In this document: positions 2,411-56,600 of the stretch, in pieces
Layout of the letters: every line of letters begins with the position of its first letter
Position numbering within the stretch: position 1 is the stretch's first letter
NCBI GenBank assembly: GCA_030264375.1
Contig: JASCQW010000132.1
Span: 67,175,627 to 67,239,626, forward strand
DNA length: 64,000 bases
Source: Carcharhinus longimanus
Lineage: Eukaryota
Direction: 5' to 3'
The notes under the pieces: model-generated
The model's database searches: none
Seen by the model: the letters and a program-made list of their open reading frames with translations, nothing else
What the model was told of the DNA's origin: nothing
Position numbers and translations under genes: made by a program

Positions 2411-5338
2411 TGAAATTTTTACTGTTTGCGAATGTTTTACTTCAAGTGGAATTCGGCCCTTTTCAGCATTGATCTAAAGATGGTGTAAAGAAACATTGGG
2501 TTANNNNNNNNNNNNNNNNNNNNNNNNNNNNNNNNNNNNNNNNNNNNNNNNNNNNNNNNNNNNNNNNNNNNNNNNNNNNNNNNNNNNNNNNNNNNNNNNN
2601 NNNCTGGTAAGAGTTAATTTTCAAATGTGATATTTAAAGCTACGGTCACACTGCAGATAAAAGTGACCCAAGTCTGTTTTTTTACAACAATATGAACAAA
2701 TTAATTCAAATTTTAAAAAATAACCTGATGCAATAAAACATTAAATTCAAAATCGTTAATAGTTTCACGGTTACAACGTTACTGTTAACAAAGATAGACT
2801 TGTCGAACTTTTTCTTGATCAGAATTTTTCATCCAAGACCAGTTCGAACTTCAAGAATATTCACAAAATGTGATCACCGACAGCTACAGATCACTGAGGC
2901 TCTTTCTTGCAAAATGGAAGGCGCTTCCTTCTAATTGTATTGCTGGAGAGAGCCTGTCTTTCCCTGCGGATCATAGTCATTTTAAAAGCATGTCCAGATG
3001 TGCATAAGGGATGAAATGCTGACTCGGGTACGGCTGGGGAAAAAAACAGCCGATATTCCCATTGTCTCCATAATTCAAGCTTAGTATCCCGGATCATTTA
3101 GAAATAACTGTGATTAAAACAATGTGATCTCGCTGCCTGATAACATAGGTGAAATCCCGTCAGCATGAATATATGGCCCCCGACCCAAGTTCACATCTGG
3201 CTAACATCTTTACATTTTAGATAAGAGAACTACTCGGCAAGAAGGGGTGCTGCTGCCGCCTGCTACTTCTGTTTGTCTGAACATGATTTCTCTTGCCCTG
3301 TGTCTCTTTTCCAATGAAATATGAGCGGAGTTTTTGTTCCCTTTAGGCGCTAGTCTGTGTTAAGAATTTGCCGATAAGGCTGGGTGACCATCACCAAAAT
3401 ACAGCCAACGCTACTTTCCTCCAAATGAGAAAGTTTCCAAAGGCAATTTGGACTCTCGCACTGTCTCCATCTTCACCAAAATAGACAAGTGGTTCCGGAG
3501 ATGTACAAAATGTTACTGATACATGTGCGATTGTAAAATCACTAAGTTACTCGGTTATCCGGCGTTTTTTGTTTGACGTTTGAATGACTTGGTCTGACTG
3601 ACGTACAATTCAATAGACACAAAAGGAATGTGAGTATGTGGCATTGTCTACAGCTCTTAGCTGCAGATAAGAGCACAGTATCTGGTCATCTGGGGAGAGA
3701 AAACCTCAGCCACGATTACAATTAACACTGCATTTTAAATGTAACATTTTCAAATCAGTTTGAATAGAAGATAATGTGAAGTGGTGAAATTAATCTGCAT
3801 AGATACTGAAACCAGCACGAAGTCAGCAATAGACAGGTTGTATGGTTATATAATTTTGGACAGTCACTGTCTTTAGAAAATATGTGAAAACCTTCTGTAA
3901 GCATAGCACCACCCCCACTCTCCAACCTTCCCCCACCCCCATCGCAAGTATAACTGCCTTCGTGTGATGAAACTTGAATTTGGAACTGGAATGGCAATTC
4001 CATCACTTTTTTTTAAGAAACTGACACAATTGAATGCGTTTCCGCTAAGCCACGAGTACACTTTAGATGAAGGCTGGGTTCTGATGAGAATGAAACCCTT
4101 TTCGGTTTAGCAATGATAAGACTTGCAACACTACTATAGCGGGGGCAATTCTGCATGGCGCTAACTTTCGGAGGCAAAAGGATGAACGGACAACTTTGAC
4201 ATTGCTGTTAAAAAGTTTTGTAAGCTTTTCAGAAGACACTAGTGGTGGAAGCTTACTGAATTAATCGTTTTATTCACAGAGACAACCAGCGTCACCTGAT
4301 CCTTTAACTAAATGACATTTCGTACAGAGAGAGACGAAATGTTCCTCACTCCTATTGTAGCTGATGAAGGGACTTCATGTACATTCGGTGACAGTTCATT
4401 ATGGTCCTGTGTAATCTTACAACTGCATTGCGACAAACACTCAGAAACGACATTGATGTAAATTAAATGTGGATTCAAACAAAAGAAAGTGTGTGTTTTT
4501 TACATTAGATGGTACCATGCATGTTTCATTTTGTCAGATATGGTTTATTGTACAGGGATACACTTATTTCTCATATCCTTCAGGGTGATTTTCAAGCGTG
4601 GTAGTAAGCATCTATCTCTCTGCAATGTACTTAAATAATCTTTCGGTTGTCTCTGTTCCTTCACAATGTAATCTAAACCCCTGCCGTTCGCGGTCTGTAT
4701 ACAATCGTTACCCTTGAGCAGGTTATGAAACCTTTTAGGAATCTAAAACAAAAGCAAGGTGTTTTAAGAGCCTTGTTAAAAGTGGCTGGGTTGAAAGAAG
4801 GGAGCACCGTGAACTCTCGGGCAAAGGGCGTGGAGCTTAAATTATCATCCTTTTGATTTCGCTGTTCTTCCTTCTCATTGAAATAAGTGTCGAAGTTTCG
4901 ACTAAATCCACTGGAATTTAATGACTGCCCCGCAGTTAGCACAGATACCCGTTCTTTCCGATACAAGTAACTGAGACGATCGTTAAGCTTTTGCTGCCGA
5001 AAAGATCGAATTTGTACCCAAAGCAAACTGTTACAATGTTCTGTTCCTCGAGTTCGGAGACAAACTTTGCTCCCTTTGCTTCCCGCCCCCCCTCTCTACA
5101 GTCTCGCTTGGTTAGTTCTAGCAGTTTGCTGACAAGGTGACCATCAAGGTGGGGGCAGATATTAAATACCCCAAGACAGTTCGCAAAGACTGACCCGAGG
5201 AGGCAGAGGGCTGGATTTAATTAAGTGTTTGTGGAGTCGTCACTGCAGTGATGCTGTGCCAGTGTTCCTCTGGCAGGCTGGCCGCATGCTCCTCCAATGG
5301 ACCTGTTGGGGTTGATAGCATTGGGCCGTAGAGTTTCT

Positions 5339-5391
5339 ATTGGCTGAGGGGATGTCCTGACACGCGGACAGGGATCCTCCTGTACTATAAG
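5339..5391 (+). promoter_or_regulatory. COL1A2 core promoter: inverted CCAAT (ATTGG 5339-5343) and TATA box (TATAAG 5386-5391)
   Basis: Arrangement and ~47-bp spacing resemble the mammalian COL1A2 promoter; GC box CCCGCCCCCC at ~5082; TSS inferred near 5410-5420. Confidence 0.75.
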
Positions 5392-5494
5392 AAGGGTACA
5401 TCACGCTGAAGATACGGCAGGAGGGTTCTGTAAAGTCTGGAGTTATCATCACCTCTGTTTTATGCTTGCTGGGTAAAAAGGCTGGGCTATTTTT

Positions 5495-5540
5495 CACAAG
5501 GAGTCTGCATGTCTAACATTTAGACATGCTCAGCTTTGTG
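5495..5540 (+). promoter_or_regulatory. Collagen 5' stem-loop (LARP6-binding) enclosing a uORF and the main ATG
   Basis: CACAAGGAGTCTGCATGTCTAACATTTAGACATGCTCAGCTTTGTG; GCATGTCTA/TAGACATGC stem; uORF ATG TCT AAC ATT TAG at 5509-5523. Confidence 0.92.
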
Positions 5541-5607
5541 GATACACGGATTTTGTTGCTGCTTGCAGTAACGACGTTCGTTGCAAGAGGCCAAAATGAA
5601 GATGAAT
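5526..5607 (+). CDS. COL1A2: COL1A2 exon 1 coding part (signal peptide, [27 protein letters not shown], phase 1)
   Basis: ATG inside the 5' stem-loop; donor T|GTAAGT at 5608. Confidence 0.96.
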
Positions 5608-8600
5608 GTAAGTGCCCCTTTTAAATCTGACAATATAATGTGTATGTTTGTTTAGACGCTGCAGCCCAGTAAGATAAGGCATGCCAGATTCTTTCAGAAA
5701 CCCGAAGTTCAAACTTATCAAAAAGTATAGCTGTGAAACAAGACAAATAAAGTTTGACCCGCTACGAATCCAGTAATTTGCAATGAACAATCTCTCTTAA
5801 ACAAGTAAGGCACTACAATAGCGAAGAATCGCACCTTGCTTATTTCATAAAATATATACAGAAATAGTTGCTTTAAAGTTGCCGTGTATTTTAAGTATTT
5901 AAAGGTGTGGCTCGCACAAGCGTTGAGCTTGTCACCGAAAACGAGTGCGGGTGCATTTAATATGTTTCATCCTTAAATTAGATCTATGCCACTTATTCTG
6001 TTCCATTGGGGCCCAGGTGATACAAGAATCTGTGGTCAATTTTTAGATACAAATAAATAGGAAAGTATGTAGTCTGGGAGGGAAGGGTGGACTTTTTAAA
6101 ATTGATATAAGTTATGATTTCAGTGATAAATGCTGGGCTAAACGGGGGAGGAGGGGGGAATGTGGCGAATATTTTGCTGTGTCGCCACCTCGCGGTAGTC
6201 CTTACACTTGTGTTGGGCGCTTTGGCTCATTGTTCTGCCCAGACTGCAGTGAAGACCGCTTTACTGAGTTTTACAAATAGTTTTTTAAGGGTGTTTGTTC
6301 TCATTTCCCATATCTTTGGTATGACTGGAGAATCGGCGAGGTTGCTGTCAGGGTTCTGAGCTGTGTGTTCCGTGCGCCTGGGTTTTTTTTTTGTTAAAAG
6401 CACTGCCCACTCTCATGTTGCTCTCTGGGGAAGAGGCAGTGCAGTTTAGAAAGTGCCCACACGACGGGCGGCTTCTAAAATCTTAAATCCACTCAGAGGG
6501 CGTGGTTTTACTGAGCGGGTGTGTTGGTGGCAATGTGGGGGAGGTCAGCAGGTTTGATCATTGGCAGGAATGATAATACATCTGCAGAGCCTCGGTCCAG
6601 CTCCCAAAAAAACCCCCAATTGTACAGCGGCGAAACATATGTGGTGGCATTTTTCTAATTAATAACAAATGCGTTTGGGCTTTTTAACGTATTTGGCAGA
6701 TTATATTGCCTGCAATGTGATTTACATTATGTGTATATATATATGCCTGCAACGTATAGACGTAACTTGACCACACCTCCCTATATAGACACACATATAT
6801 ATGTAGACTGTGAGTGGAAAGATCTGAAACCAACGCTAGTCCTTTGGAGCCTCCTACTGGTAATTTGCAGTAGGTGTTGATTTGGCCCTGGCGAAAGTCN
6901 NNNNNNNNNNNNNNTGTTTAAGGGATTTCTTACTCGGCCGTTCTCATTTTTTGGGCCGTCTTTTTTAGGGAGCTCTAAAGATAATCTTCGGCTGTGCAAG
7001 GCAGCTAGATGGTTTACCACATCACAGTGATTTTATTAAAGCACTTATCAGAGTGATTAATATGCATCTGCTGCCAGTGCTTGCTTACCTGTCCTCATAT
7101 AAGGGCAAACGAATAATCAAATAATTTCTATCTCAGTGTTATATGATCCACATTATAAATATCATGCTTCATCATAAATATGGTAGAAATATTTTTTAAA
7201 ATATCATTTCTCTACCATTGTTTGAAGTGTATAGTTCTATACTCATATAACATTGCCACCACCAAGCTAGCCGATATACTCACTAAAAGGTCAAGCAAGT
7301 TTGTACTGTTAAGCCTTTTTTATGAATAATTCGATTTTAGTGCATTTGTGTATATATACATGAAACCAAAACTGAAAACGCTGGAAAATCTCAGCAGGTC
7401 TGGCAGCATTTCTAAGGAGAGAAAAACCATATATATACACGGTTTGTGATTTGTGGCCACTCGCCATCACCTATCTCCTGTTGCAGCAGGTCTAGCTAAC
7501 AGCGTTGAATGAATGAAAGTGCAGGAAATTAAGAGCAAGGAGGTGTTGAAACCTCTGCCTTGTTGGTGGGTTTTGTGTGTCAGCAGTCTGATGATATCAT
7601 TGGAGCGTCGACAAGGTGGCTCCAAAGTCATAGGGAGGAAATGTCGCCAGATTGTCATCCTTGATCCTAACACCACTAGCCTTAATTGGTCCACCAGACC
7701 ACACTTTTTACCTTCTGCTTTCATCTGCGTCACTGACCTGTTAATGTCAATATATAACTGGAACCCAAACTGAAAGCCGATAAGATAACTAACTACCTAA
7801 AAGAGATTTACGCATTTGTTCTTAATGTATAAATACTAGAAAATAATAGTGCTAATCTAATTAAGCAAATTAATAAAAATAAACAATGATTAAGACATTC
7901 GCTTAATTTTCTTTCACATTTCTGATTAATGTGCACTGGGACAATATAAAGCCTTTGCTTCACTAAAATTGGCGTTTGAGAGAATTTTTAAAATACGTTT
8001 TTTAAATTTTTATCTTTTTTAATTGCATTTTTAAATTTAAACTTATTTATACTCTAATTTCAAGACCAAGGTGAATATGCACCATACTGATAAATAATAA
8101 GATTCATTAGGAATAATTCTTAAAATCAATTCCAAAATAATCTCTCTGCAAACTTGGTGCAAAGCATACCTGCTGATTGATACAGTGACAACAATGGACA
8201 CGAGTCTCATTTCCCTTCAACTGAAGATAAGTTTCTCTTCTAATTTACAGAGATTAGCTCTATTCCACTCTGAATCCTACTTTAATGAGAACCAACAAAA
8301 AAAATGTTTCCTGCGATATCCTATTTGGATGANNNNNNNNNNNNNNNNNNNNNNNNNNNNNNNNNNNNNNNNNNNNNNNNNNNNNNNNNNNNNNNNNNNN
8401 NNNNNNNNNNNNNNNNNNNNNNNNNNNNNNNNNNNNNNNNNNNNNNNNNNNNNNNNNNNNNNNNNNNNNNNNNNNNNNNNNNNNNNNNNNNNNNNNNNNN
8501 NNNNNNNNNNNNNNNNNNNNNNNNNNNNNNNNNNNNNNNNNNNNNNNNNNNNNNNNNNNNNNNNNNNNNNNNNNNNNNNNNNNNNNNNNNNNNNNNNNNN

Positions 8601-11600
8601 NNNNNNNNNNNNNNNNNNNNNNNNNNNNNNNNNNNNNNNNNNNNNNNNNNNNNNNNNNNNNNNNNNNNNNNNNNNNNNNNNNNNNNNNNNNNNNNNNNNN
8701 NNNNNNNNNNNNNNNNNNNNNNNNNNNNNNNNNNNNNNNNNNNNNNNNNNNNNNNNNNNNNNNNNNNNNNNNNNNNNNNNNNNNNNNNNNNNNNNNNNNN
8801 NNNNNNNNNNNNNNNNNNNNNNNNNNNNNNNNNNNNNNNNNNNNNNNNNNNNNNNNNNNNNNNNNNNNNNNNNNNNNNNNNNNNNNNNNNNNNNNNNNNN
8901 NNNNNNNNNNNNNNNNNNNNNNNNNNNNNNNNNNNNNNNNNNNNNNNNNNNNNNNNNNNNNNNNNNNNNNNNNNNNNNNNNNNNNNNNNNNNNNNNNNNN
9001 NNNNNNNNNNNNNNNNNNNNNNNNAAATGTCTTCATCAATGTAAGAAATATATTTTTATTTACTTCATTTTTATTTGGTACATTTTGAAAAATATCACAG
9101 GACCTCCTCAAATATGGGAGAACATCTTACTGTTATTTTTAGCAAAACCACATATCATATGTAAAATGCCATTAAAAATTCACTGCAAGTAATGATCTAA
9201 CAAAATATTCTGCCATTTTCACTGTAATTATATATTGGCTAATTAATACCACAGAATCAACCAGAGGATTGATACTTTTCATATGGAGTGTTGTGTGTGT
9301 ACACAATGTACAATTGACACTACAGTTACATATGTCATGAATTCATAACTAATATCTTATTTCCTGCTCTTTTTCCACAGACACATATGAAAGCGAGGTA
9401 AGTATTGACAATCATAATCATTAGAAATTCTATTGTACTTGAGTTAGACAAGATAATTAAACAATTTTGTTTTCTCTTGCTTCTTGCAGACTGACCAAGA
9501 ATTGATGGTATGTATAATGACATTTTTTCTTTATGTGATTGTGAGCTCTGGATTGGTGTATTTCTGCAGTCTACTGAAATACAAATACAGTGAGACAACA
9601 AGCTATAGTCTCAACCAGCACTTGACTACATTTCAATACTAATTAGACTTCAGGAACTATAGAACATTTAACAAACCCATTGGAAATTGCAACATCAATG
9701 TATAATGGAGACACAATTCACGAGCCATGATTATTATCTTCTTCATGGTGTTCCCCATACTTTATGGAATCTATTTTACTCATGAGATACATATGTCCAC
9801 ACTCATGTGGCATAAATGACATTCCATTTTTGTTGCCTAGTTGTTTGCATTATGTGTCCACCAATTTGATAAAAACAAAGATACAGCAAAAAATTAAAAT
9901 ACAAAAATTCAACATCCTTATAGACATGGATGTTGATGCTCCACTAATATTTGAAGTGTGCTGCATGTGAGTTGTTTGTCCCATTCAGTTTATCCCATTT
10001 CTCCCTTCCCCTTTAACTTCACACCTATTACTCTTTTTGTATTCATTCTTGGGATGTAGGCCAGCAGTTATTGCACATCCCTAATTGCCCTTGAGAGGGT
10101 GGTGGTGAGCCACCTTCTTGAATGTAACTGAGCGTTTACCAGACCATTTCAGAGGCAGTTAAGAATCAAGCACTGGAATTCTGTTTGATTATCACAAAGA
10201 TTTCAACTGTGATTCTTACATGCTTTTTTTCTCATGGAACCTTTTGCTGTGAGATGCAGACATCATACATCCTTCTCCAGTTTTGACTGCAGGATAATCT
10301 GAAGCACAGATATTTATCTGTATGATTTTTACAGATTGCAGATATTATTTCACTCAGGAAATTAATTTATAATTCGATGATGTTACTTTATTTCCTTCCA
10401 TCCATGAAATAATGTTCATTGTTAATGTTTTATTGAGCTGCTTGGCTGAGCATTGACCAACTGAAGAGGCTCTGAAATAAAACTTGGTGATGGACCAAGC
10501 TGCATAATCTTTCTCTATTCCTGTTACATATGATCTGATGCTAAGGTAAAGTCACCATAGGCCCAGATGACCATAGGAGCTGACTGCTGGTGATTTAACA
10601 TGAGCATCACCACACCTCAAGCAAGAGGTGAGGTTGAGAAGGTGAGGCCTTCATGAATAACCTCAGCCAGTACAATAATTTAACCCACACTGTTGATGTT
10701 GCTTTGCACCATGCATCAGCTGTCCAACTAGCTGACTTAACTATTATTTTTGACAAAACAAATAAACTAAACCAAATAAACTGAGGGACAAGTTAAAAGG
10801 GGCAGCCCCCAAAAAGGAGGGAACCACCTAAAACAAAAGGCAAAGCAAAAAGGAAACTTAAAACATTAAATCAAAATGTAGTTAAAGGGGTCAATAATAC
10901 ACCCCAGTCCCCAACTGAGCTAACTGACCCCCATGTTCTGGTGTAATAAGCAAAAAGCAGTACTAAGCAGCCCTGAATAAGCATTTGACTGGTTGGCTAC
11001 TGTGAAGCGAACATACAAACAACTACATTATCAAACTTATCCTGTTTGCCTATCTTTTAATTAGGCGGCTTTTCATTCTGTCACTTGTCATAGTACCTTC
11101 ACACACTAACTGGGAGAGACAGTAGGCAAAGTTGAAAAGGGAGGTTGGAAGCAGCATTCGAATGTAGACTGTGCTTTTTATTTAGATGAAGGAAATAAGT
11201 CTGCAAAAAATTGCATTGCTTCTGAACTCATTTTCAGTTTATACAGTGAGACAACTTTACATGTACACATTGATGTTGCAATTTCCAATGGATATGTTAA
11301 ATGTTCTATAGTGTCTGAAGTCTAATTAGTATTGAAGTGTAGTCAAGTGCTGGTTGAGACTATAGCTTGTTGTATCACTGTATTTGTATTTCAGTAGTCT
11401 GCACTCATCCATGCTTGATTTTAAAGGATTTATGTTAATTCTCTTTTCCCAGTCTCTCTGAGTGATCTTCTTGTATTCCTTTGTGTAATATGGGCAATGC
11501 TGGCTGGGCTAGCACTTATTGCCCATCCTTAATTGACCTAGAACTGAGCTGTTTGCTAGGTCATTTCAGAGGGCATTTAAAAGTTAACCACATTGCTGTG

Positions 11601-23600: not shown

Positions 23601-26600
23601 CATTTTTTCTATTTGTAATGCTATATTGTAATCCTTTCTAACATTTTCATGAAAGTTTTTATTTCAGTGTTTATGCTTATTTTCAATGTGATGCCTATTG
23701 ACCATTCGTCTTACAAGATTGAGCATTCATAAGTTTTAATAAATTTAATAATGCAATTTTTGTGTTTCCTTTAAGGGTCCCCGAGGCAGTGATGGTATGA
23801 CTGGACCTGCTGGCCCTCCTGTAAGTACGCAAATAAAACTTAATTAATCATTAAATTGACAAATGCACAACTATTAACAAGTTACAAGAGTAATTCTGTA
23901 ATATAATACCCTGAGAGTTACAGTCTCAGCAAAGTGAAGAGTGAATACTGGGCAACTTACTGTATAGCTAGCTGATGACTTCATTGCACAACCCAAATAT
24001 ATGTGTGCAGCATCCATATAATGAAAGCCTGAAATGTAAGAGAAACATTTCTGTTGCCTGGACCTCTCCAGAAGAGCCCTAGAGCCCTCAATAATGCCAG
24101 TGACAAAATTTGTAATAGTCTGCTACATACTGCACAACCCCACCATTATAAGGCCAAAGACCTTACCACCAGCTACATAGTAGTTATTTGAGGTACAGAA
24201 TGATGAGAAGGAGGATCAGGAGAATGTGGAAGGAAAGGAAGAAAAGGAAGGAACAATTCACGCATTTGCTATCTGTCATTGACTTAACTAAGAGCGATAT
24301 TAGTAATTGCAACCCAGTTTCCCCCATTCACAAACCTTTACCTTCTATCTGTCACTGACCATTACAGTGTCCACTGGCCACAATGATAGAATAGAAGTCA
24401 TCACAAAAGAAACCAGGTTTAAAAGTGAAATCATATAGCATACAAAAGTTAATTAACCTCCCTTGCATATTCCTTCAGTGCCTGTCCTCTGTGTGCCTTT
24501 GCCTCTCCTACAGCAGAATTTTATACCAGCTGGGATTTTACAATCCCGTCGAAGTCAATGTAGTTTTAAACAGATTGCACATTTTACAGCCCCAGCCCCA
24601 CTGCAATGTAGTTATAAAATTCCACTCGTAATGCTCCTACTCAATACAACCCCAGTGGCGACAGCAAGTGGAAGGCAACTGACTTACATGCTGGCAGATT
24701 GCAAGTGGTCTTGCAGGGCCCCCTTGAGCAGCTCCAGGCCTTGAGTGCCTCACTGCAGATTGCAACATCTCAGCTGGATGGCATCAGTCTGAGCTGCCTG
24801 GCTGACAGGCAACAACAAGGACACTAGTGGAGTGTTAGAAATGAGAAGATGAATGCTATCTTCCTGAGAGGAGACCAGTTTAGTGCCTCCTGGAGCCATT
24901 GACACTCTCCAAGCCAATGACTCAGAAATCCTAATAAAGTAAGAGAACAGACTGCAAAGTAAAAAGGTAGTGGAGGCAGGAAACCTAACAACCTTTAAAA
25001 AATGAGCTCTTGAAATATCATAACATTCAAGGATATAGGATAAGTACAGTAAAATGGAGTGCCTTTAGTGGTAGTTGTTACTGGTGCAAACCCAATGGGC
25101 CAAAGGGCCTTTTCTGCACTGTATAACTCTATGAGCAGGATCTTCCGGCTGCATTCGACCCAAGAGCAGAAAATCCCGCCTGAGATCAATGGATCTTTGC
25201 ATGGTCAGCCCCTGCCCACTACAGTTCCCTTGGCAGGCAGCATATGGACTCTATGCTGGACTGCTGTGAGGTTCTGAAAACCCCTTTGAACATTGTAGTC
25301 CACAGCTTTGATAACAGTAAGCTGACCTTGCATGATAGCAAGCTGAACTTTCACTGCAGCAGCCAGACATTGGGTGACTGCTGCTTCTGCTGCACTGGAA
25401 GTTGTGACATTAACCATCAGTTGCTTCGTTATAGTTGACTCCACAAGTATTCTCATGGAGAATACATTGACACCATTTCCAAGTCGAAAATAATGGGCTC
25501 CAAGCTCTGTGTAAAGTCTTGTGTTGAATTAGTGCTGGATTCCTTCATGCTTCTGGACATTGTCCACAGGATTTCTGATGGACTTACAATGCAGCAAGCA
25601 TTTAGTTGTGTATGTCCATTCAACATGCATCTGCAGACTGCCCCATTGAAATACTCATCTGAGTCCTAGGCAGCAGAACTTGTCTACACCTGAACCTTCG
25701 GTGAGCTGGCACCTGTGCTCCCCTTGCTCCCCCTCTTCAGGTCACTCAGGCCCAGTATCATACCACATGCAGATCTCACCTCAGTATGACCCTTTGCTTG
25801 GTGTTTTTCCAGTGCCAGGCCAAGTTTCATTTCTTGGATATCTGAAAGGAGAAATACACAATGAAAGAATTACAGTAGCGGGATGGGGGAAAATAAGTGT
25901 TGTGTGTCTACACCATCTACAAGTTCCAAATCAGAAAAAAAAGTGTAAAAAGATAAGGAGGAGGGAGGGGTGTGAGAAGATGGATTGGATATGAGGCTAT
26001 CTTTATCTTTAATAGTTTCATCCCCATTAGTGGCCCTATCCTCAGCAATCACTATTCCCATAATAGTTAGTATCACCTCCTCCATGAGGGTTAGGAAAAA
26101 CAGCCCACCTGTCTGTTTGTGTGTGTCTGTTTGTGTGTGCCTGTGTGTGTGCCTGTCTGTTTGTGTGTGTCTGTTTGTGTGTGTCTGTGTGTGCGTGTAT
26201 CTGTGCTTGCATGTCTGTGTGTACTTATGTCAATGTGTCTGTGTGTGTGTGTCTGTTTGTGTGTGCGTGTCTGTGTGCCTGTGTGTGTGTGTGTGTGTGT
26301 GCCTGTCTGTGTGTGTGTGTCTGTTTGTGTGTGTGTATCTGTGCTTGCATGTCTGTGTGTACTTATGTCAATGTGTCTGTGTGTGTGTGTGTGTCTGTCT
26401 GTCTGTGCGTGCCTGTGTGTTTGTCTGTATGTGTCTGTGTGTCTGTTTGTGTGTGTATCTGTGCTTGCATGTCTGTGTGTACTTATGTCAATGTGTCTGT
26501 TTGTGTGTGTGTGCGTGTCATCTGTGTTTCTGCATGCATGTCTGTTCGTGTGTGCTTGTCTGTGTCTGTGCTCGCATGTCTGTGTGTACTTACATCTGCA

Positions 26601-29600
26601 CTTCAGTTTGCCTGTGTGTCTGATTGTGTGTGTGTGTGTGTATGTCTATGCCTGTCTGTGCACGTGTGCATATCTGTGTGTGTGCATGTCTCTGTGTGTG
26701 CACGTGTGTATGCGTGTCGCGTGTGTAGCTGTGTGTACACGTGTACGTGTGTCTCTGCATGGGCATGTTTGTGTTAGTGCACGTGTGTGTGTGTGTGTGT
26801 GTGGTTGGGGGGGAGCGGCTAGGAGGGGGGAATCTTGCAGGCGGCGAGTGTTCCCCATCGCTCTGCCGNNNNNNNNNNNNNNNNNNNNNNNNNNNNNNNN
26901 NNNNNNNNNNNNNNNNNNNNNNNNNNNNNNNNNNNNNNNNNNNNNNNNNNNNNNNNNNNNNNNNNNNNCATGACTAACAACACCTGTTTCAGCCATAAGG
27001 CAGCTCCACTTAAAGAAGCACAAGGTTAGGTTTAAACACTGCAGCCAGACTAGCTTTAAGTGATGCTAGCCATTCATGATATTGGCCCCTGCTACTGTAT
27101 CAAGGTAATCAGCAGCATAGGGTGGGAATCGCTGGCCATTCATGCCGGCGGGATTCTCTGGTGTCGCTGCAGTGAATGGAGGTATGGCTGAGCACCAAAT
27201 TCTCCATCCTTGCTGGCAGTGGCAGCGGGTCATGATCAGGCAGAGAATTCGGCCAGTTAGTGTTGCCTGGGTGAAGAAAACATTGACATGAGCAGGCACA
27301 CAAAGGTGGCATGTTGCCCGCATTGCAATCAATAGATACAGGTTATCATGAAGCCTGGGTCCATTATCAGATGCAATTAAATTTCGTCATCAGTCCACCA
27401 ACATATATTATTGATATTACTTTGTTTTGTATATTACTGCTAGTCTGGTACTGCACATTAATAGTATGAAAAAATGATGTATAAATGCTAAGTTAGGTTA
27501 ATTTGTGTTATGTGACTTCCATGGAAGTTACTGTCCATGGTGGTAGGTCTGGAAAGGTGATATAATAGAATGTGGGTAGATAGGTACAATACTGGAAGGG
27601 TAGCTGTCCGGGCACTAATGCCTAATCTATAATAAGCAGGTCCACTCTGATGGCATTGAATTGATTTGAATGGAGGTTTTATCAACTTCTCCAATTACTT
27701 TAGTCTTCATTAGCATTAGCAAAAATGTTGCTCCTGCAGACTTTGATAAAGCACAGAAACACAAGGGTCTGAATCTTTCGTCCATTGGGCACATGCACTT
27801 GGTAAACAGTCATAATTGTTCTTGGAGTGTGATTTCAAGCCTGCTGGCCAGTTTATAGCCAGTCAGCGTAAAATGTGCACTCTGAAAGGCTGAGCACTGC
27901 CAGGGAGGACAGGAAAAGAGTGGGTGCTGAGAGCAGTGACAGTGCAAGAGGACATTTCCAACAAGCTTCCTGAAGTTTGACAGTTGCCTCAGGACCCAGT
28001 GACATTTGCACCAATATCTCTCCATATTACAGAAACAAGCAACTGGTAGCATAACACATAACACCTCAACCCTCAGACTTTTTTTTTATCCCAGATATTT
28101 AATGCCATCCTGAATTGGGAATGGTGAAAAAACATGGACACCATGTGGGTCACATAAAATTAGGGTCAATGGCATGCTTAATGGACTTAGTTGCCCTTTC
28201 AACTGTCAGTGAGCACGTCCAACTCTTGTGCGTAACCATCGACTGAAATATTGCACCAATATATTGGGACATGTGTCTAACTTCTTACCGTGCAAGTTGA
28301 GAATGGACACCCACCCACCCAAGCTCTGTTAAAATTCTGGCCACAGTAAATTCTGGTATAAGAGGAACACAAAAAAGGCAAACTGTTAATATTTGCAATT
28401 TTATTTCTTTATAGGGACCCAATGGTGCAACTGGTCCCCCAGGCTTCCCAGGCAGCCCTGGATTCAAGGTAATGTTTTTAATGACAAAAAGTGAATGCAG
28501 TACAATATTACCGTATTGAATAGGTGAATACGTAAGATCATTTAAAAAAAAATCATTTGTGGTTTGGAATATCTTTGTATTTCTATCATCCTTTATCTCA
28601 AACCATTCAGAATGCTCTCAGTAAGTTGTCTACCAATTAACTGCAACCTGCCAATATTCATTAAAAGCATAATTTTAACATGTTTAAAGTCTAACAATGA
28701 TTTCCATTCACAAACCCTAGTAGTAACACTGGTTTCAGTTGATGGCCACAATTGTTCAGTTGTTTGAACATAATTCTACACAGACCAAACATTTAACTTT
28801 TTGTTACATAGATGACAAACTTATTGTATTCAATATCGTATCAAAATAAACATGTATAATCTGATAAATTACGGAATTACTGCAACTTTCCAAACTGTAG
28901 GTAAAGCATCACAATCAAGAATAACCATTGAGTTAATTTTATCTTTATGATAGCCATGTAGGAACTATTTTGAGTTAGGTTCCCACAAACCTAAGGGTAT
29001 GATAGTTGATAGCTGTAACGAGGCATCTATTTATCAGTTGGATTTCTTAACTGTAACCTATTATTTGTAATGCTTCAAGTATCACAGCAGTTCAGAAACC
29101 CAGTGCTACTAAAGGCACAAAACTCAAGTTTACAACATTCCCCAGAAATCAAAGGCAGGCAGAAATAACTAAAATTATGCTGAGCTTTTAACAACTAAGT
29201 TAATTGTCATAACTGTCTTAAGACATTCTGCCTACAAGAAGAATGTTGCATCCATAACTTATTTCAGACAGTAAAATAATATACCATCAAAATGAGCTTA
29301 TCAATTATTTAGTGAAGTCTCAATAAAATGGTGACTTTCTAAGCCTGTGAAAGTTATGCTTTGGTTTTGATCTGTTATCACCTCAGTCAAGGAAATGAAT
29401 ATATTATTTATTTGTGGATATGAAAACATTAAAAGTAATCTGTTTCCTTCTATTCTCAATAGCAACCTCTTATTAGACCCAACAAATTGATCATTATATT
29501 AATATAGTATTAATTTATATCACCAAGTAAAGTCAAAAGCACATCTACTTTATAATTAGGTTAGATTCTGGAACGGAATGACAATCATTCAGCTGTACAA

Positions 29601-50600: not shown

Positions 50601-53600
50601 CTTGGTCAACCTGGTGCCCATGGTCATGCAGGTCCTGCTGGCAAAGCTGGCAATCGTGGTGAGGCCGTAAGTTTACAATTTTGTTTTGCTCTCAAACAAG
50701 GAAGTGCGTAATAACAGATTTAAGTCTTAAATTTTGTAATTTAGAAATAAAAATACTTTTTTGTTTCCTTTTACATAAGGGTCCTGTAGGTTCAACTGGT
50801 GCTGTTGGTCAAGTGGGTCCAAGAGGTCTTGCTGTGAGTACATGTTCAAACAGCTGTAATATCATTCATGTTGAGAGAGTGGAAAGGTTAGATGATTTAG
50901 GCTTCAATATATATCCCTCTACGCCAATGGAAACAATCATTTCACTGCTACTCTGGAGATTAAAAGGATTGTGGAACCCATTATGTCAGATCTTGCATGC
51001 ATGGGGTTTTATGGAGCTTCTCCAGAAGAGCACAGAGACATCCCCACCCACGATGAAGTCACAACTCCCAACAGTGGCATGATAATGATGTGGGAATGGA
51101 CATTTCCAGCTCTACCACCTCATTTGTTTCTCCAAACTTCAAAAGACGTCAACAGAATTCCTTTCAAGCTGAAGGGCTTGACAAGGCAAAAAAGGGCTAA
51201 CAAGTCAGTGTCCTTGTACTGCAGATGCAATTGGATTGTGCCTCTTCCTGCTATTCTTTAACTGCAAAGTCTTGCGGCTAAACACAGAACTGTAGCTTCT
51301 GTTTTCACCCACTACTACTAGAATTAGGGGGTCCTCATTGTAATTTTGTTCTGTTTTCTTCACGTATGATATCAACAACTAAGTAAATCTATTCATCATT
51401 TGTAGGGCCCACAAGGTCCACGTGGAGAAAAGGGTGAAACTGGTTTTGCCGGTGTCAGAGGCCTGAAAGGATTAAGAGGACCTGGTGGCTTGCAGGGTCT
51501 TCCAGGTGTTGCTGTAAGTATTTTCTAAGATTCTTGAACATTCCCCACCACCACTACCGCCCCCCCGCCCCCCCCCCATCCCCGACCTTTGCTTTTTTCT
51601 ATCATTCTCTGTGGAAAATTCTTGATTAATTTCCTTTCCATTCTAGGGTATTTCTGGTGAAGCTGGTGGTCATGGTCCTACTGGTCCTTCTGGTCCAAGA
51701 GTAAGTGAAGAAACAATTTTTCAGATTTTGATTAATAGGTCATTTTCAATTGAGAACAATCCACTAATAATAAATTAAATGGATGTGCTCATTCTTCACA
51801 GGGTCCAGCTGGCCCTGCCGGTCCTCATGGCAAAGATGGTGCAGGAGGACATCCTGGTCCTATGGGTCCTGCTGGTCATCGTGGGCGTCCTGGTGATCAT
51901 GGTCCTATGGTAACTTGACATTTATAAGCTGATGGTGAAATATTTTATATTTAAGCACACAGGCCACTTCTCTAGTGCCACAATGGCATTGCGAAATAAG
52001 ACATTACACAGGATTGTATTGAATATATGGCACAAAAACAGACAATGCCAATGTTAATGGTTCCCTCAAGCCTTCCATATTTTCCTCAGCTAGAAATCTA
52101 ATCAGAACTATCCCCTCTCCCTCTTATACTTGTCTAGCTAGCCTTTAAATGCATCTATAATATTCAGTGCAACCACCATTTGTGGGATCAAGTTTTCAAA
52201 AATTCATTAATCCTTAAGTAATCAAGTTTATTTTGAATCCCCAATTTAGTTTCTTTGTGACTATGTTTTACTGATGGCTTCTAGAAATTCTCTTTCCCAC
52301 AAAAGGCAATTTTCTTTCCATGTTCACCCTGCCAGAAGAAACGCAATCTGTCCATCCTTTCCTGAAATGCTTACCCACACATTCCTGGGGTTGAGGGAGG
52401 ATGGTGTAGTCAACCGTTAATGGCCTCAAACAGCTTGAGAAGCACAAGGAAGAATGGTTTAATTCTATCACAGTTACCTACAATTTAATTTGTGAATTTG
52501 GTAAGAGCTGTTTCAGTACATTCAGAGAGGCAGAAACTTGATTAGAAGATTCAAACATGGAGAGCAAAGAGAACTTGTAAAAGGTATAGTAGATGCTAGG
52601 ACAATAGGGGTGAAAAGCTTATTTGTTGAGAAGAGATGTGATAATGAAAAATTTTAAGGAGACCAACAACCCTTTAAGTGAGAGAATGAATGAGAAATTG
52701 GCTATGTTTGCATCCCATTGGCAACTGCAAATCAAATTCAGAATTTCTGTTTGGGTACTCCCTTCCTTGTTAGGACACACTTAACTTGCATGTGTCCAAT
52801 GGAATTAGGCAAAGATTAATAGGCTAAGGCATGGGAACCCTGAGTTGTACCCTTGGGTATTGATGGAGCTTCACCACCTAAAATCACTATTTCTCAGGAC
52901 TGAACCTCTCCTCACTGCTCATCACTCCATCTACAGATCATTAGCTTGCAGGGTATACAAGATGGAGAAGGAGGAATTTTAGGTGCAAATGAACTAGGCT
53001 GACTGGACAATAAGACTACCTTGCAGCACTATGGCTTTTCATGTTCAGGTATTTGATTACCAAGTTATCCACGGACAGCTGAACTTTCTCTACAAGTTAA
53101 AGGGGAAGATAATTATTAGCTGCTACTTGGTCTACTGTCAAGAATGAGTTTCACTCCATTCTAAGCTCTCCTATTGCTGGACATATAAAGCAACATTGTC
53201 TAAATAAATGAAAATGATCCAAATGAATTATCTAAAACCATTGTGAGGAGAATTGTATGATAATAACAGGGAACCACATTCAAGTAATTTGTCACATAAA
53301 GGGAGTCAACTGAAAATAGACAAATGAATTAAAACCTTGTCTCTTTTTAGGGTCCTCCAGGTCCACCCGGCCCTCCTGGTCACCCAGGTGTGGCTGGCAG
53401 TAGTTATGAAGTGAGCTATGATCATGAGTATTACAGAGCCGACCAGCCAACTGCAGTAAGAGAGAAGGATCTTGAAGTTGACGCCAAACTGAAAGTTCTG
53501 ACCAATCAAATTGAGAATATTCGCAGCCCTGAAGGATCAAAGAAAAATCCTGCTCGTTCATGCCGTGACCTGCAATTCAGTCACCCAGAATGGAAGTCCG

Positions 53601-56600
53601 GTACGTTCATGAACAAAATTACTACATAATTATCAATATTTTTCAATTTAAAATTTTTTAAAAATCATTAAATATATCATGTAGTCAGGTACATAATGAC
53701 CTGGAAGGTCATAGGGTTAAAGCCTAATCTGAGCTGAGTGAACTAATTCAGTTCCCAGGGAAAGGTTATAATTGGCTCCCAGGGAGGATAAAAAAATAGC
53801 CAATATTCTACTTCTCAATTGCTTCTCAGTGAATCCTTTCTGGCAACAAGAAAGTATGCCTCATCATTGTACTTTCCCACATTTAGGTTATTATTGGATC
53901 GATCCCAACCAAGGGTGTATCATGGATGCCATTAGAGTTTACTGCGACTTTGTATCAAGCGAAACTTGTGTACATGCCAACCCAGACATCACTGAACGCA
54001 AGAACTGGTGGAATAACAAGATTCCCAAAGAACAGAAACACATATGGTTTGGTGAAACTATCAATGATGGTGTCCAAGTAAGTCCAATTCAGATTTTTGT
54101 TGGTAAGGGTAGAACAATACCCTTTACAATAAACGTTAATGCAGCATATGGTATAGTACTTGAAATGTTGGGAAATAGATATCTTATCTTGAATCTCTTT
54201 GTTCCAGTTCACTTACAATGATGAACACATTACTCCATTTGTTATGGGTACCCAGCTGACCTTCCTGCACCTTCTCTCCAATGAAGCCACACAAAATATC
54301 ACCTATCATTGTAAGAACAGTGTAGCATATATGGATGAGGAGACTGGAAATCTGAAAAAGTCAGTTATCCTGCTTGGTTCCAATGATGTTGAACTCCGAG
54401 CTGAAGGTAACAGCAGATTCACTTACAGCGTTCTGGAAGATGGATGCACAGTAAGTCCCTGTTACTTGTCTTAATACTAATCATATCTAGATACACTAAT
54501 TGTGCATGTCATGTAGTGACCAAATGCATTATCTGCTTGCGCACATTCTATTTTGGCTGGAATCAGTAGTGAAGCATCAGAGCTCAATGAAGAGATTAAA
54601 AACTCTGATCTAAATTGTTACAGCAGTGAATATATTTACAATACTCCTAACCAATGGCCTTAATAAGCAGCAGGCATAAGTGGCGATACAGCAGCCTATA
54701 AGTTACCGCACCACGCTGATTATATATTCCAGGTGATATATTGCATGTGCGTAGCTTAGTCAAACCTGGATTAAAAATATTGACTATGTGCAATGAGTTG
54801 CATTGACGCAAACAGGTGCCAGAATATGGCACTAAAGGAATTTCACAATAACTTCACTGCAGTGTTAATATAAGCCTTATTTATGACAAACAAATAAAAT
54901 AAATTAACTCAGATTTTACAAGGAACATGACTCCTAACTCTGAATTTGCGGGAAATATTTTCAAAATAAAATACTACTTTTCTTTATCTTCCATTACATA
55001 CTGTTTTCATTTTCTTTCTCATTTAAATCTTTTGGTAATTTAGTTGTACAAAGACAATTTGGCCCTTCAAGCCACTCCATTTCATTATTAATCTCACCCA
55101 TATTCCTAGCTTCTCTATATCCATTTATCGTTTTTCTGTTCCTTTCACCCATTCTGCATTCATTTAACCACTTCCAGAATTGGCCATGCCTTAACTTTTA
55201 CTTCGTTCACATTATCTCATTGCTCCTAGCATTTTTTATCCTGTAACCATGGAAGTTGGAATATCTTACTAGTGATTGGCTATGACACTGTAAAATGAAA
55301 ATCAAATGATAAGCATTTTGTTCATTTGTTAAATACATCCTGCAAAACAAGGCATCCTAATCACACAAATAAACTGCAACATATAAGACACTCTACATGA
55401 GTAAAGCTTGCGCAAGATGTTGATACCACCCACAATAGACACACTATATAAGAAAATCCATACATGTTTGAAACATTGATAGACCTGTAGCGTGAAGGTA
55501 ATAATAGGAGATCTTAGTAACTTCTGGAAGAATACTTTAAATAACGTGTTGCCTTTCTATTCCTTTATCTGTATTGAAAAAAGAATCATGTGAATTAAAC
55601 TAGTCTGTGGTATTATGTGCTGCTTTGCCAAAAAATAAGACTAGCGTTGTGAGTGTATCTGACATTTTAGCTGTGACTTTTATGGCCCCTCCCACCCCCA
55701 ACTTTAATGGCAGAGGCAGGCCAATTTTAATTCTTGGGCCTTATTTGCAAACCGCACTCAGTTGTGGAGCAGCAATTATATGTTAATGATTTGGACATGA
55801 ATGTGGGGAACGTGATTGAGAAATTTGCAAATGCTCAAAGATTGGCTGAGCAGTGGACAGTGTCGAGGATAGCTATAATCTCCCAAAACGATATAGATGG
55901 GTTGGTGGGAGTGGGTGGTAAAGTGGCAGGTGAATTTTAACACAGGTGTGATAACATAGAGAAGTGTGAGCTAATGCATTTAGAAAGGTCAAACAAGTAC
56001 ACAATAAATGAGAATATACTAAGAGGGATAGATGAAGTGAGAGATCTTAGCGTACAAGTACACAGATCCCTAAAAGTAGCAGTTCAAGTAGACAAAGATA
56101 TGGAATATGAAAGTAAGAATGTTAGGATGGGTTTAAAATACTGGTGAGGCCACACTTGGAGTACTATGTGCAGTTCTGGTCACCACATCACAGGAAGGAT
56201 GTAATTGTTCTGGAGAGAGTGCAGAGGAGGTTTACAAGAATGTTGCCAAGGCTAGAAACATGTAGCTACGAGGAGAGATTGAATAGGTTGGGGTTATTTT
56301 CCTTGGAACTAAAAAGACTGAGGAGTGACTTGATTAAAGTGTATAAAATTATGAGGGGAAGATACAGAGTGGACAGGACAAAATTGTCTCCCTTGGCAGA
56401 AAACTCTAGAACCAAGGGAAATTGATTCAAGATGAGTGGTAGAAGATGTAGATGGGACATGAGGAAGAACGTTTTAAAGCAGAGAGTAGTGGGTGTCTGG
56501 AATTCACTGCCTTACTTGATGGTGGAGGCAGAAACCCTAAACCCTTTTAAAAAGTACCTGGATCTGCATCCTAAACTATAGGGCTATGGGCCAGGTAAAG

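Follow-up and report, generated by a model that had tools for sequence, protein, structure and literature searches.

The window, by which we mean the whole 64-kb stretch of DNA analysed here, contains a single gene for a fibrillar collagen, on the + strand, in which an exon filter recognized 43 helix exons of 45–162 nt. Judged from its sequence, this host gene is the COL1A2 of a fish resembling the elasmobranchs. This assignment is based on the first two C-propeptide exons, which are identical to catshark Col1a2 at 60 of 64 residues in a by-eye comparison with the sequence in the supplement of PMC4584932. The gene lies in the middle of its contig (67 of 145 Mb), and a member of the CASD1 family is found about 70–85 kb beyond the window on the same strand as COL1A2. 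The two genes are also linked in human. Open stretches 3' of the C-propeptide exons, at 55731–56422, look like fragments of a retroelement reverse transcriptase. A long TG-rich simple repeat at about 26100–26870 reads as runs of Cys-Val and thereby gives false VWC-like scores. The parts of the gene considered below are as follows:

5494..5541, + strand: 5' stem-loop spanning the start codon (fold -21.9 kcal/mol, z -5.2, 0 of 200 shuffles equal)
5526..5607, + strand: coding part of COL1A2 exon 1, with signal peptide and acidic tail, ending in phase 1
5608..9380, + strand: intron 1, with 3,066 known bases and N runs at 6900-6914 and 8333-9024
9381..9397, + strand: 17-nt exon after intron 1, starting in phase 1 and so joining exon 1 in frame
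9490..9507, + strand: 18-nt exon after the 17-nt one
53351..54077, + strand: first two C-propeptide exons, the basis for the COL1A2 identity

Exon 1 shares 62 of 82 letters with exon 1 of the shark's own COL1A1, including all of the last seven, and the likeness takes in the acidic tail and the donor context. An earlier note on this DNA had described the end of the exon as alpha1-like, and rightly so; the resemblance may reflect ancestral retention or an old gene conversion. The stretch that forms the stem-loop has a near-identical counterpart in the shark's COL1A1, and we take it to be the conserved 5' stem-loop of fibrillar-collagen mRNAs. The 5' part of intron 1 (5608–6899) is CpG-rich, with 37 CpG at 42% GC, and could be a regulatory region. 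The second N run of the intron is 692 nt long, enough to conceal an exon.

A genome search recovered four collagen-type VWC exons, none of them on the COL1A2 contig, and a Pfam profile search of that contig gave no match to PF00093 (VWC). We labelled the four exons COL1A1, COL2A1, COL3A1-like and COL5A2-like from sequence, signal exons and exon sizes, labels that are in part assumed. The VWC exons of COL1A1, COL2A1 and the COL5A2-like gene are 195, 213 and 210 nt long and phase 1-1; those of COL1A1 and COL2A1 lie 1.7 and 5.7 kb past exon 1. The VWC exon of the COL3A1-like gene is 200 nt long and ends in phase 0; skipping it would break the frame, which is not so for its paralogs.

It is established that alpha2(I) lacks a VWC domain (PMC8887668 and PMC2852846). 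The earlier note proposed that a fossil of the missing exon survives in intron 1, in a 202-nt segment at 7487–7688, and all the motifs that it quoted are present in the intron where it placed them. When exon 1, which ends in phase 1 at 5607, is joined at the acceptor AG ending at 7486, 25 residues are read in phase across the junction; an 11-residue motif and PDCHP occur in a second frame, and KC in the first. The features of the candidate remnant and its surroundings are:

7361..7425, strand not assigned: 65-bp high-copy repeat fragment, adjoining the remnant and outside it (40 other matches at 88-97%)
7463..7486, + strand: weak site resembling an acceptor, whose phase fits exon 1 and block 1 (2.75 bits)
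7500..7563, + strand: candidate block 1, running from the region of the first Cys up to KPLPC, with a stop (TGA, 7510-7512) and with TTG at the domain's Trp
7564..7603, + strand: candidate block 2 on the best path, frameshifted, about 10 nt short, with a DDII motif at its end
7604..7658, + strand: candidate block 3 on the best path, about 8 nt short, with traces of the domain's GECCP-C end (path end 7658-7659)
7689..7694, + strand: donor proposed by the earlier note, not credible as a splice site (-7.2 bits)

Over these blocks the best path pairs 159 letters, 76 of them identical, with two gaps (10 and 8 nt) and one surplus letter; of the domain's 10 cysteine codons it retains 3. The TGA that had been read as the former first cysteine is present, but its assignment is ambiguous, the best path taking 7506–7508 for that position rather than 7510–7512. 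The location is homologous to that of the exon in the paralogs: the blocks are on the + strand, in intron 1, with both neighbouring exons in phase 1, and the segment lies 1,879 nt past exon 1, compared with 1,696 nt for the VWC exon of COL1A1. GC content is 46% in the remnant versus 31% in the next 200 nt.

Splice sites were scored with a model for which 46 acceptors served in training, and compared with 46 true donors. The acceptor had been called intact; its AG does end at 7486 and the phase fits, but at 2.75 bits it falls below all 46 training acceptors, the lowest of which has 3.8. An in-phase acceptor of such strength remained after 13.8% of simulated decayed exons and occurs at 7–9% of random places, and what the site contributes is a likelihood ratio no higher than about 1.7. 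In one relative about 17 nt are missing just 5' of the site (7441–7476), a further sign that it is not maintained. The proposed donor, G|GTCCAC at 7689, does not hold up at all, scoring -7.2 bits against 1.7–10.5 bits in the 46 true donors, and no GT within 7650–7760 scores above 0.1 bits. The 202-nt exon that it would close was rejected, as its length is not a multiple of 3, the frame would break and the donor is not credible. For the same reasons no 3' boundary could be placed for the old exon.

The segment cannot be a working exon, given its stop codon, its frameshifts, the lack of a donor, the retention of only three of ten cysteines and the lack of added conservation in three relatives. 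It has no open reading frame (TGA at 7510–7512, plus the frameshifts). Contigs from four of 24 listed runs were compared, three of them, from related species 2–5% apart, covering the segment and the fourth reaching only 7558. The stop at 7510 is common to all three covering relatives, and no indel separates them inside the segment. Over the 202-nt segment their changes number 3, 7 and 8, versus 5, 7 and 9 in 172 nt of flank, and purifying selection was not detected in this low-power comparison (Fisher P 0.48–0.79). Adding the letters of these relatives, which are only 2–5% apart, shifts the VWC score by +0.01 bits, a shift equalled by 25% of random sets. The remnant is thus without coding function now.

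A stretch of broken sequence in an intron could instead be an old fragment of a transposon or other repeat with no link to collagen, and the high-copy fragment at 7361–7425 does end only 60 nt upstream of the segment. That fragment is found in all four relatives compared, with thousands of matching contigs; 40 of 355 candidate copies were scored and all 40 match at 88–97%. It is probably the tail of a LINE or SINE. Its other copies run on into different sequence, however, and the segment itself behaves as single-copy DNA. The own-genome DNA search, which is word-based and would miss old families, returned one match, the segment itself; contigs of three relatives give a flat, single-contig depth at 80% likeness; and the 901,222 nt of DNA fetched contain no long match (best E 0.04, over 17 nt). 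An origin in a multi-copy repeat, the outcome that the earlier note named as fatal to its own proposal, is accordingly highly improbable.

No standard search gave a significant VWC match. None of three readings of the segment matched the Pfam VWC profile, a PDB search of the segment returned no VWC match, and nhmmer with the shark's own paralog VWC exons found no match within it. With the same exons, tblastn and blastn were not significant at the segment (best E=0.09 and E=0.22); for the COL2A1 exon, the segment is the top match in the whole 64 kb in both tblastn (E 0.09, at block 1) and blastn (E 0.22). A search of Rfam over 5300–9600 gave a single chance-level match (E 0.99), no tandem repeats were found within the segment, and the first-frame ORF of the remnant had no homologue in a protein search. 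The blank Pfam, PDB and nhmmer searches and the missing donor are what one would expect of a chance resemblance, in which a slightly GC-rich intron with a short KPLPC-like patch was joined across frameshifts to weaker motifs by a reader expecting a VWC domain.

To weigh this we used a frameshift-aware profile of 59 columns, made from 110 collagen-type VWC stretches and the four own exons (114 in total), with which DNA was scored on the assumption that it had decayed neutrally and with indels; the scoring went through five successive variants. The first (unnormalised, order-2 null) placed the segment first or second in the window, at decay 0.2–0.5 and in the summed whole-domain mode. Under the order-4 null of the second the segment's rank was 36 among the 192 peaks found over 790,650 nt (true exons account for four of these), and 63 and 33 of 100 shuffles scored as high; under the average-column null of the third it ranked 18th, with 2 and 8 of 100 shuffles as high. 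With the fourth, unnormalised and with a raised indel rate, the signal was absent: scores as high came from 61 and 58 of 200 shuffles and from 57 of 150 permutations, and the reversed profile outscored the true one. The fifth was normalised and worked at the nucleotide level, with an indel ratio derived from the relatives' contigs, and under it the segment reaches 12.9 bits, the top score of the window with both strands counted. Among controls, 1/200 and 0/200 shuffles and 0/376 column-permuted profiles attained this value. It is exceeded by 4 peaks in 790,650 nt of background and reached by 3 peaks in 720,976 nt of held-out DNA (3 of 196 intron-sized windows), which when pooled make 7 peaks in 1.51 Mb, or P ~0.014 per 3,066 nt. 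The similarity of the segment to collagen VWC is thus beyond chance, though modestly. The comparison with shuffled controls that the earlier note had envisaged stands under the normalised model, but the result is modest and model-dependent, the cruder variants being weak or null.

Several further results bear on the same question. The stretch 7500–7658 is the best site of intron 1 in all 64 of 64 settings, including those in which the rows from this genome were left out. Simulated fossils, planted so that the variants could be judged independently of the segment, were recovered by four model variants with AUC 0.98, 0.88, 0.81 and 0.95, and under these four variants 2, 0, 24 and 2 of 70 real windows reached the score of intron 1; the variant without signal (24/70) is the one weakest on planted fossils. 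Real exons decayed in simulation to 0.5–0.6 substitutions per site scored a median of 15 and 9 bits, which is the observed range. The first half of the profile gives 13.9 bits ending at 7563, the best in intron 1, a value matched by 4 peaks in the 720,976 held-out nt. The second half, anchored after block 1, outscores some 98.8% of the 170,438 anchors drawn at random (P ~0.012), with the qualification that it adds just 1–4 bits, block 1 holding most of the score, and that the split was chosen after the alignment had been seen. As single-exon queries, COL1A1 and COL2A1 score 10.1 and 9.5 bits and each picks the same site, whereas the COL3A1-like and COL5A2-like exons give only 2.6 bits at the segment, and 26 non-collagen VWC exons give at most 5.1 bits there and at most 6.9 anywhere in intron 1. 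By this comparison the remnant sits nearer to collagen VWC than to VWC exons of other kinds, though the two other collagens score low.

Part of this evidence would also fit chance: in real genomic DNA some 1.4% of windows the size of the intron score equally, block 1 alone is matched by four held-out peaks, and one of four model variants finds no signal on real windows. Against it, the domain, the intron and the strand were specified beforehand, one of each; three of four models give 0–2 of 70 real windows, the exception being the least powerful (AUC 0.81 versus 0.88–0.98); and both the independent support from the second half and the specificity for COL1A1 and COL2A1 would be unexpected. We consider a chance resemblance rather unlikely. 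The Bayes factor is 7.9 over 3,066 possible ends and about 14 with the acceptor included. Multiplying the latter by a judged prior of 0.15–0.3 for survival in readable form leads to about 0.7–0.85, and we place our own estimate in the lower half of this range because several models were tried. On these sequence comparisons the segment in COL1A2 intron 1 is probably a real remnant of a VWC exon, and the central proposal of the earlier note is supported by the normalised model and by the COL1A1/COL2A1 specificity.

The likelihood of the decay estimate peaks at 0.5 substitutions per site, plus 3–4 indels. Values of 0.4–0.7 lie within 2.9 bits of the peak and 0.3 and 0.8 just outside, and in simulation the estimate is unbiased up to 0.6. 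From a dS of 0.061–0.111 by which the whale shark differs from the zebra shark after ~50 Myr, as given in PMC13100897, we obtained by our own arithmetic a rate of 0.6–1.1e-9 per site per year, which applies to two other sharks over 50 Myr. At this rate 0.5 substitutions per site corresponds to 450–820 Myr, and the youngest combination (decay ~0.35, fastest rate) to ~320 Myr; the split between cartilaginous and bony fishes is placed at ~450 Myr ago in PMC3964593. At fourfold sites COL1A2 differs from COL1A1 by 0.68 (129/288 differ) and from COL2A1 by 1.5 (63/97), with exons paired by size and identity, so that a few pairs may be wrong. Halved, these distances are 0.34–0.75 per lineage since duplication, the same depth as the decay of the remnant; its decay is thus roughly what neutral sites have undergone from the origin of the paralogs onward. 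COL1A2 probably stopped using the VWC exon hundreds of millions of years ago.

The earlier note inferred from the legibility of the segment that the exon was lost separately from, or later than, its counterpart in bony vertebrates. This inference is not supported. With a central estimate of 450–820 Myr and a split at ~450 Myr, nothing requires a later loss, although there may have been one: as the decay at these rates dates back to or beyond the split, one ancient loss combined with a slow shark clock suffices. Simulated exons at 0.8–1.0 substitutions per site reach the segment's score in 3% and 0% of trials, and an exon this far decayed would be barely detectable, which would explain a blank in the faster-evolving bony vertebrates.

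A real remnant left by a later, separate loss in cartilaginous fishes, some lineage of which may still splice a VWC exon, would fit the youngest age of ~320 Myr, which postdates the gnathostome split, and the alpha1-like tail kept in exon 1. Relaxed selection before the loss would also have inflated the decay estimate, the 692 unknown bases leave room in intron 1, and lamprey dropped VWC separately in other clade A genes (PMC8887668). The central estimate of at least 450 Myr speaks against it, as does the position of the gene in mid-contig (67 of 145 Mb), the kind of place for which PMC13100897 gives the lowest rates in whale shark. The stop and frameshifts are present in all three covering relatives, though these are only 2–5% apart; gnathostome col1a2 models are reported without VWC in PMC8887668, with ghost shark in the data set; and the four collagen-type VWC exons of this genome are all off the COL1A2 contig. 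Protein searches aimed at an intact VWC yielded no full-length cartilaginous-fish COL1A2 (35 and 2 matches), and no VWC-bearing protein started like shark COL1A2 among 150 listed of 876 (E up to 0.001), both being weak negatives. We regard such a later loss as improbable. The suggestion of the earlier note that living cartilaginous fishes may still encode the domain finds no support in view of the shared lesions and the VWC-free gnathostome models, on what is admittedly thin sampling. The fuller version, in which the exon was kept past the split of bony and cartilaginous fishes and lost separately in each line, so that some chimaera, ray or deep-branching shark has a near-intact or alternatively spliced alpha2(I) 'A' isoform like IIA, seems very improbable to us.

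The account we favour, and consider somewhat likelier than all others together, is that the segment is the remnant of a VWC exon once shared with the paralogs, which was lost by permanent skipping in early jawed vertebrates and has stayed legible through slow shark evolution. In three paralogs of the shark genome the VWC exon is phase 1-1 and has a length divisible by 3, and such a cassette could be skipped without a break in the frame. A weakened splice site would then have dropped VWC from alpha2 with no penalty for the helix. A stage with two isoforms, comparable to COL2A1 IIA/IIB and suggested in the earlier note, may have preceded this. Type I collagen usually consists of two alpha1 chains and one alpha2 chain (PMC2852846), so two VWC copies per trimer would remain, and the loss was probably tolerated because the two alpha1 chains of the heterotrimer keep the domain. 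The unused exon DNA would have stayed put, its decay reaching about 0.5 substitutions per site with 3–4 indels. As it was left in place, we infer a loss through splicing and not through deletion.

It has long been known that alpha2(I) is the only vertebrate clade A chain without VWC, and we found no description of the manner of its loss. Nor did we find an earlier report of a VWC remnant in COL1A2 in the literature covered, which excludes most subscription and older papers, including the gene-structure work of the 1980s; the available parts of PMC2289128, PMC4584932 and PMC8927422 contain nothing on it. The signal sits near the detection limit. If the remnant is real, its presence in place favours fixed exon skipping over deletion, and both the date of loss and the first lesion could be tested with an alignment of this single intron from sharks, rays and chimaeras. 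As a dead exon that is still legible it would, moreover, be very old, and would suggest that domain losses of early vertebrates can be recorded in the introns of sharks. The view of collagen function is unchanged by it.

Dead exons, or pseudoexons, are exon-derived intronic DNA that decays neutrally once splicing is lost; compared with these in general the COL1A2 remnant, if real, is unusually old and close to the limit of detection. With VWC exon 2 of COL1A1 and COL2A1 (PF00093; PDB 1U5M and 5NIR for collagen II) it shares the place after the signal-peptide exon, the phase-1 entry and the order of motifs. It differs from that exon in having a stop, 3–4 indels, about 20 nt less and 3 of 10 cysteine codons, and in lacking a donor, a Pfam score and any sign of selection. 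In COL2A1, the IIB form skips the VWC cassette; the cassette domain binds BMP-2 and TGF-beta1, and IIA alone of the two forms binds BMP-2 (PMC2148200). Modern COL1A2 resembles a fixed IIB, with the difference that the COL2A1 exon is intact and regulated whereas the COL1A2 one is dead.

By analogy, the nearest precedent is the 1alpha fibrillar collagen gene of sea urchin, which was described as lacking VWC, like alpha2(I), and whose first intron holds VWC-coding sequence (PMC2852846); the hidden exons there are open and partly covered by ESTs, whereas the shark segment is broken. In lamprey, VWC is present in all clade A genes except two, and the two genes named col1a2 keep it (PMC8887668). These genes, col1a2alpha and col1a2beta, are col1a2 orthologs by phylogeny, an assignment that, as the paper itself states, microsynteny does not support. 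The same survey reports VWC as absent across gnathostome col1a2, from data that include ghost shark. The intact VWC of lamprey col1a2alpha and col1a2beta would then represent the ancestral state (PMC8887668), of which the shark COL1A2 probably carries a broken remnant.
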